Positions 30,370 to 30,859 of a DNA stretch of 64,000 nucleotides are shown piece after piece (position 1 is the first letter of the stretch; each line of letters begins with the position of its first letter). The notes under the pieces were generated by a model that was not told where the DNA came from, made no database searches, and worked only from the letters and a program-made list of their open reading frames with translations. The DNA lies in NCBI RefSeq assembly GCF_057098645.1, contig NZ_CM169472.1; one strand, 5' to 3'. A program made the position numbers and the translations under genes.

Positions 30370-30380
30370 CATTTTTACCT

Positions 30381-30398
30381 GTTGTGTTATAACATAAC
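30381..30398 (-). promoter_or_regulatory. Zur box (zinc uptake regulator operator) upstream of rpmE2-rpmJ2
   Basis: Near-palindrome gttgtgttataacataac (core tgttataaca) 12-29 bp upstream of the rpmE2 start; these zinc-independent ribosomal paralogs are established Zur targets. Confidence 0.6.
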
Positions 30399-30859
30399 CA
30401 TAAAGATACATGCTCATCCGGATCATTTCAACACCCAATCCCTGTGACCATTAGTGGTATGTGGAATTTCCTCAACGGGGAAGTCTGGCATTGTTAACAG
30501 CCATTGGCGACGCTCCCATAAACGCCTGGATGAGTGATTGATGATAGTTTCGCTGAGAGTATGGATTTTTCGAGAATGGAGGTTATCTCCACTTTACTGG
30601 CCGATGATTTATCGCAGTATGATTGATTACCTGACAGCGTGTATTCCTCTCCCACGGATATAATAATTACTTACAAAAAGGGAGAGGATGCATATTTTAA
30701 ATATCACTGAAGTGAACAGTTTATTGCCGTTATTAATAGAAATGGAGAAATAAATAGGCGTATTCTACTAGACTGGCCCCCTGAATCTCCAGACAACCAG
30801 TATCACTTAAATAAGTGATAGTCTTAATACTAGTTTTTAGACTAGTCATTGGAGAACAG

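Follow-up and report, generated by a model that had tools for sequence, protein, structure and literature searches.

Here, we present an analysis of a 64,000-nucleotide stretch of DNA (the window) from contig NZ_CM169472.1 and conclude that positions 30380-30399 are very probably the operator through which Zur would silence the ykgM-ykgO operon (rpmE2-rpmJ2) when zinc is sufficient, in an O145:H28-like Escherichia coli. The Zur-controlled swap of the zinc-binding ribosomal proteins L31 and L36 for zinc-free YkgM and YkgO is a textbook case of metal sparing. The operator thus belongs to an already known system; what distinguishes it here is a rare natural allele, a G in place of the canonical A at position 30384. 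Most likely, the G-allele operator still works and is at most moderately weaker than the canonical operator. The window is identical to O145:H28 RM9872 at 99.93% of positions over 1-30768, and its positions 32100-52000 are essentially identical to several O145:H28 genomes; the genes are in the order ecp operon, ykgL, ykgO, ykgM, and ykgR. The features of the operon and its control region are as follows.

29966-30106, minus strand: ykgO (rpmJ2), type B L36, 46 amino acids (NF002021; K-12 annotation coordinates)
30106-30369, minus strand: ykgM (rpmE2), type B L31, 87 amino acids, no Cys (open reading frame; NF002462)
30380-30399, no strand: predicted Zur box, 20-bp two-dimer operator TGTTGTGTTATAACATAACC (pattern, position weight matrix, orthology)
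30384, no strand: G for the canonical A (C for T on the gene strand), rare and disrupting the perfect 18-bp palindrome
30385-30394, no strand: perfect palindromic core TGTTATAACA, with a single occurrence in the window
30403-30431, minus strand: predicted sigma-70 promoter of ykgM-ykgO (-35 TTGAAA, 17-nt spacer, -10 TATCTT)

The first-pass annotation had taken the palindrome to be the core of a Zur operator, and the motif statistics bear this out. In the 64-kb window, TGTTATAACA occurs once on both strands, while 0.04 occurrences are expected from dinucleotide-preserving shuffles (a match in 4 of 100 shuffles). The structure-based pattern for E. coli Zur is TGWNAYRWTATAWYRTNWCA (Gilston 2014, PMC4219657). 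At two or fewer mismatches, its sole match in the window is 30380-30399 (two mismatches, that is, 18 of 20 positions; 0.13 expected), and the K-12 allele matches at 19 of 20 positions, the extra mismatch of the window being the SNP at 30384. As a second measure, a palindromic position weight matrix (PWM) was built from the K-12 znuC (znuA/C), zinT, and pliG operators as read from NC_000913, and the ykgM operator was left out to avoid circularity. With this PWM, a check that had been proposed at first pass, the Zur box scores well over background: it reaches 21.5 bits and ranks first among the ∼64,000 positions, while the next unrelated site has 11.3 bits, and none of 200 shuffled windows reaches 21.5 bits (best shuffle, 21.25 bits). 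Consensuses centered on an odd position fit this even-centered site poorly, with seven mismatches to the Panina 23-mer and five to the Yersinia pestis 19-mer; nonetheless, the Zur box is within the four best window positions for both.

The Zur box is located 11-30 nt upstream of the ykgM ATG (30369). Read on the gene strand, the order is TTGAAA (30431-30426), 17 nt, TATCTT (30408-30403), TA, TGGTTATGTTATAACACAACA (30400-30380), and GGTAAAAATG followed by the ATG, and the ykgM Shine-Dalgarno AGG is at 30380-30378. Within the 20-bp box, the 18-bp near-palindrome GTTGTGTTATAACATAAC at 30381-30398 fits the two overlapping RNNNYxxxRNNNY dimer sites, RNNNYRNNRYNNYRNNNY, with no mismatches. In the crystal structure, the purines that are hydrogen bonded by Zur (Arg65/Tyr45) are at positions 7, 11', 12, 15, 16', 19', 20, and 24'; all eight of these contact positions of RNNNYRNNRYNNYRNNNY are preserved in the window, and the central TTATAA, of which TATA is the Tyr45 contact in the TGWNAYRWTATAWYRTNWCA pattern, is unchanged. 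The predicted -35 and -10 elements match the consensus at 9 of 12 positions, in a scan that is not significant on its own (two found versus 2.3 expected), and the layout agrees with that of the mapped Y. pestis ykgM promoter (PMC2706843). The Zur box begins 4 nt downstream from the predicted -10 and covers the expected +1 (predicted near 30396), and a Zur footprint of ∼30 bp would span both the -10 and the +1 of this promoter, which is predicted from a consensus match only. From the sequence, we infer the positions of the promoter and the transcription start as well as the binding of Zur to the G allele.

The genes downstream of the Zur box encode type B paralogues, as had been proposed at first pass. 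YkgM scores 122.7 bits against NF002462 (type B L31; cut-off, 86) and is annotated as ykgM in >4700 genomes, while YkgO scores 91 bits against NF002021 (type B L36; cut-off, 70), and ykgO overlaps the ykgM stop codon by 1 nt. YkgM is without Cys, and YkgO has two isolated Cys and no CxxC. The zinc-ribbon cysteines are absent and both genes are downstream of the box, as in an operon of zinc-independent paralogues. The neighbor of ykgO in the gene order, ykgL (29706-29896), is frameshifted compared with K-12 YkgL, and O145:H28 RM9872 has the same annotation; in E. coli Nissle, ykgL was reported to be co-induced with ykgMO by calprotectin (PMC12279244).

Based on these features, we suggest that, when zinc is sufficient, two zinc-loaded Zur dimers would bind cooperatively to opposite faces of the ∼20-bp box. 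With the box over the predicted start site, the RNA polymerase would be excluded and ykgM-ykgO would be silent. A drop in zinc, as caused by TPEN or by host calprotectin, would release Zur from the DNA and allow the zinc-free paralogues of L31 and L36 to be made. The K-12 L31p operator has been studied by EMSA and reporters, and it was shown that two Zur dimers bind cooperatively, that their affinity for the ykgM operator exceeds that for the other three E. coli operators, and that repression in vivo amounts to 560-fold (PMC4219657). Expression from a ykgM-lacZ fusion, otherwise silent, goes up ∼1000-fold when zur is mutated or TPEN is added (PMC7297116), and calprotectin induces the operon >1000-fold in E. 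coli Nissle (PMC12279244). The first-pass reading of the locus as a zinc-starvation switch agrees with these data, the site in the window being orthologous to the K-12 operator for which Zur- and zinc-dependent repression has been published.

The claim that the operator had been retained holds with one reservation. The box is present and identical to that of K-12 at 19 of 20 positions; however, it has been changed from A to G at 30384. In K-12 and in O145:H28, the operator is GTTATGTTATAACATAAC, a perfect 9+9 palindrome, whereas the window has the near-palindrome described above, and, apart from the G at 30384, the sequence at 29900-30768 does not differ from that of O145:H28 RM9872. Using a 35-mer query in which any 28-base seed was forced to span 30384, we found the A allele in at least 4743 of the 5426 complete E. 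coli genomes, while the G allele was present in 6 of the 5426 (∼0.1%), namely, 2014C-3011, SMN013SH2, SMN152SH1, SMN197SH3, OkiPb01679, and AF22, in all of which ykgM, ykgO, and ykgR are annotated as intact. These six genomes have extra changes just outside the palindrome, from CCA to CAG or CCG at 30399-30401, so that the flank is ...TAACAG in five (2014C-3011, the three SMN cattle isolates, and OkiPb01679) and ...TAACCG in AF22. In the lineage of five, the change at 30400 that accompanies the G removes the second outer mismatch to the 20-mer pattern of Gilston. Because the G allele is on other flanking haplotypes in all six genomes, the allele in the window looks independent in origin. An import of the G allele by recombination was considered and rejected; the other lineages differ 15-17 bp away (30399-30401) and also in the flanks.

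Position 30384 corresponds to position 10/21 in the crystal numbering and is outside the hydrogen-bonded purines; the adjoining base 20/11 has a narrow minor groove in the crystal structure. In the four K-12 operators, the base is A in seven of eight half-sites, and only the weak half-site of pliG deviates. Alpha-, Beta-, and Gammaproteobacteria share the exact 18-mer GTTATGTTATAACATAAC (species representatives, loci L010-L129), which there is upstream of genes for L31 paralogues, COG0523/CobW GTPases, and FolE2-like proteins and of zur-like genes. The K-12 ykgM box is thus a perfect pan-proteobacterial consensus. When the mirror positions of the 18-mer were left free, 100 of the ∼120 matches among the species representatives had A/T there and G/C was very rare; in boxes beside L31 paralogues of Enterobacter, Lelliottia, and Vibrio, the same position varies (T/A). 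In the PWM, the A allele scores 25.9 bits and the G allele 21.5 bits, the latter on a par with the weak pliG operator, so that the affinity may truly be reduced. The 20-mer of the G variant recurs without a mismatch at 1271-1290 of the metagenome contig Ga0157365_10000616, which is GC-rich and from an unrelated organism. There, it lies between divergent cobW/COG0523 and DUF1826 genes, a pairing that is characteristic of Zur regulons. When the predicted 5' UTR was folded with one allele and then the other, neither gave structure beyond that of shuffles (z = 0.84 and -0.32), and we thus have no evidence for an effect of the SNP at the mRNA level. No description of ykgM operator point mutations turned up in a literature search.

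Upstream of the operon, ykgR is split by an IS2 element, in agreement with the first-pass annotation, which had called it disrupted.

30733-30768, minus strand: ykgR 3' fragment, including the left target-site duplication (30764-30768)
30769-32099, plus strand: IS2 (IS3 family), 1331 bp (annotation in matching records)
32100-32170, minus strand: ykgR 5' fragment (MKENKVQQISHKLINIVVFVAIV...), including the right target-site duplication (32100-32104)

The duplicated target site is the 5-bp direct repeat tctac. IS2 has terminal inverted repeats of 33 nt that are imperfect (79% complementary) and two overlapping transposase open reading frames of 136 and 301 amino acids on the plus strand, which read away from ykgM, and the matching records label the element "IS3-like element IS2 family transposase." When IS2 and one copy of the repeat are removed, a 33-amino-acid YkgR is restored (NF041474, 78 bits), and the ykgR 5' fragment is 100% identical to the 5' end of the O145 ykgR. 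Compared with a typical simple insertion of IS2, the length, the inverted repeats, the 5-bp duplication, and the two overlapping open reading frames are alike and nothing is unusual. The ykgR/IS2 junction was absent from all 5426 complete E. coli genomes (5426 of 5426). IS2 is located 338 bp upstream of the ykgM -35, and the 363 bp between ykgR and ykgM are all in place, with 30384 as their sole difference from O145. Because of this distance and because the element reads away from the operon, IS2 most likely inactivates ykgR alone. In E. coli EC476, a separate IS3-family element is present just upstream of an intact ykgR, between it and the downstream flavin oxidoreductase gene; together with the IS2 in the window, this insertion indicates that the neighborhood of ykgR has been struck by IS elements more than once.

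Other explanations of these observations can be weighed against a functional Zur operator. It is exceedingly improbable that the palindrome arose by chance as an inverted repeat in AT-rich sequence or that it serves a different regulator, for example, Fur. The bare purine/pyrimidine skeleton RNNNYRNNRYNNYRNNNY is indeed uninformative (241 window matches versus 270 expected), and 12 of 100 shuffles contain at least one match to the 20-mer pattern at two mismatches; however, the site is orthologous to an experimentally characterized operator and is the top site of an independent PWM, while it has mismatches to the Fur consensus at 9 of 19 positions, with 1859 other places in the window being equally good, and the same 18-mer recurs before L31 paralogue, COG0523 GTPase, FolE2-like, and zur genes in Proteobacteria. 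Together, orthology, PWM, Fur mismatch, and recurrence of the 18-mer effectively refute this explanation. We also give very little credence to the idea that a hybrid outward promoter of IS2 governs ykgM-ykgO by read-through. A promoter-like pair spans the IS2/ykgR junction (30762-30791, minus strand, toward ykgM), consisting of TGGAGA (-35, 30791-30786), 18 nt, and TAGAAT (-10, 30767-30762), which together match the consensus at 9 of 12 positions; a prediction of intrinsic terminators gave none from the junction to ykgM; and in E. coli Nissle, the upstream intergenic region reportedly lowers the basal expression of a ykgMO reporter (PMC10410751). However, matches of equal quality are as common in shuffles (two found, 2.3 expected), so that the pair is at chance level; the transposase is directed away from ykgM; the whole intergenic region is intact; and any read-through would still run into the Zur that occupies the DNA shortly before the start codon.

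With regard to the G at 30384, a sequencing or assembly error, in which case the real operator would be canonical, is highly doubtful. While the exact 71-mer is found in no complete genome, the window departs from its nearest relative at ∼22 places per 30.8 kb, and one or more further local haplotypes likewise have no exact match, 16 of the 21 left-side substitutions are transitions and there is one indel in 30.8 kb, which is the pattern of real polymorphism, and the same A-to-G change occurs independently in six other assemblies. It is possible, although on balance unlikely, that the G lowers the affinity of Zur to such an extent that the operator is weakened, with ykgM-ykgO being leaky when zinc is replete, or derepressed at higher zinc than in other E. 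coli, and the threshold of the switch being shifted. The base is conserved in the K-12 half-sites and in the great majority of E. coli genomes, the change breaks the perfect pan-proteobacterial palindrome GTTATGTTATAACATAAC at a PWM cost of 4.4 bits, it adjoins the base with the narrow minor groove, where we infer that a G:C pair may have a cost to indirect readout, and, in the five-genome lineage, the G co-occurs with the 30400 change that repairs the other outer mismatch. On the other hand, the base is not one of the eight hydrogen-bonded purines; the wild-type ykgM site has ∼300-fold more affinity than znuC, which itself is still regulated, and thus has affinity to spare (PMC4219657); the drop in PWM score stems mostly from pseudocounts, the matrix having been trained on six half-sites; the same G 20-mer is found in a Zur-regulon context on the metagenome contig; and the G persists in six other E. 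coli genomes with intact ykgM-ykgO. Altogether, we favor that the G-allele operator most likely still works and is at most somewhat weaker via indirect readout.

The simplest account of the origin of the SNP is drift. Between the window and RM9872, there are 22 differing sites in the 30.8 kb on the left and 8 in the 23 kb on the right, and a nearby 66-mer with two other SNPs has no exact match in the collection. Given these many strain-specific differences, the operator SNP is one among many and is probably not special. For the same reason, the idea that the SNP and IS2 together mark a local mutation hotspot is unsupported. It is quite improbable that the A-to-G change, rather than reflecting neutral drift, is a recurrent, selected regulatory allele with at least two origins in E. 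coli that gives the switch to zinc-free L31/L36 a higher zinc threshold or a higher basal level. If it were selected, the two origins would be the O145:H28-like strain and the lineage that includes cattle and STEC isolates, and the allele could be a pre-adaptation to zinc limitation imposed by calprotectin in the inflamed or ruminant gut.

The window contains a second segment that is related to the ykgL-ykgR region.

11211-11479, no strand: diverged partial second copy (alignment to the ykgL-ykgR region)

Positions 11211-11363 align to 29850-30002 (from the 3' end of ykgL across the spacer into the final ∼35 nt of ykgO) with 75% identity, positions 11363-11447 align to 30685-30769 with 94% identity, and positions 11442-11479 align to 32100-32137 with 87% identity, running on across the IS2 site. 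In this copy, the ykgO tail is joined straight to the 3' two-thirds of ykgR, and there is no counterpart of 30003-30684, which spans the bulk of ykgO, the whole of ykgM, and both operator and promoter. The PWM scan gave no match inside 11211-11479. Thus, the duplicated segment is without the core of operator and genes, as had been noted at first pass. The segment is not confined to this strain. Related O145:H28 genomes have it as well, with the annotation "ykgR, incomplete" in RM9872, and a query across genomes matched at a median of one place per genome and at four at most.

Two further differences from RM9872 are located toward the right end of the window. A 1310-bp IS3-family element at 55157-56466 matches the annotated element of RM9872. 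On one side of it, the window is without 464 bp of RM9872 (part of an autotransporter pseudogene), and on the other side, 1047 bp are missing (a hypothetical gene fragment and most of hyxA), which suggests that these losses are IS-adjacent deletions. At 58670-58913, there are six substitutions and two single-base indels within ∼250 bp; this cluster could stem from recombination over a small patch, or the segment could be hypervariable.

The confirmation of the operator adds nothing new on the ykgM-ykgO switch, the promoter of which is already in use as a biosensor for calprotectin and zinc limitation (PMC10410751, PMC12279244). Rather, we suggest that the useful by-product of the analysis is a natural single-base variant at a conserved but non-contacted position of the highest-affinity Zur operator in E. 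coli. This G variant would provide a cheap gauge of the share of indirect readout in the affinity of Zur and of any variation in the repression threshold between strains.

Panina 2003 is reportedly the source for the Zur operator of K-12 ykgM-ykgO (L31p/L36p). The operator in the window is like this operator in its chromosomal position, in the genes downstream, in the box at 19 of 20 positions, and in the flanks, which are identical from the start codon through the -35. It differs in that K-12 has A at the position of 30384, a perfect palindrome (GTTATGTTATAACATAAC), and one mismatch to the 20-mer pattern versus two in the window; moreover, ykgR is split by IS2 only in the window. The six E. 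coli G-allele operators have the A-to-G change at the same operator position; however, they differ from the window in having the changes at 30399-30401 and other haplotypes, and they have no IS2 in ykgR. In the ykgM-rpmJ2 operon of Y. pestis, the box is GATGTTACATTATAACATA, and the transcription start and the footprint were mapped experimentally, whereas in the window they are predicted (PMC2706843). The arrangement is nevertheless alike, with the box being 16-34 nt upstream of the start codon in Y. pestis and 11-30 nt in the window (Li 2009, PMC2706843), and the Y. pestis box overlaps the core promoter and represses by exclusion of the RNA polymerase (PMC2706843).
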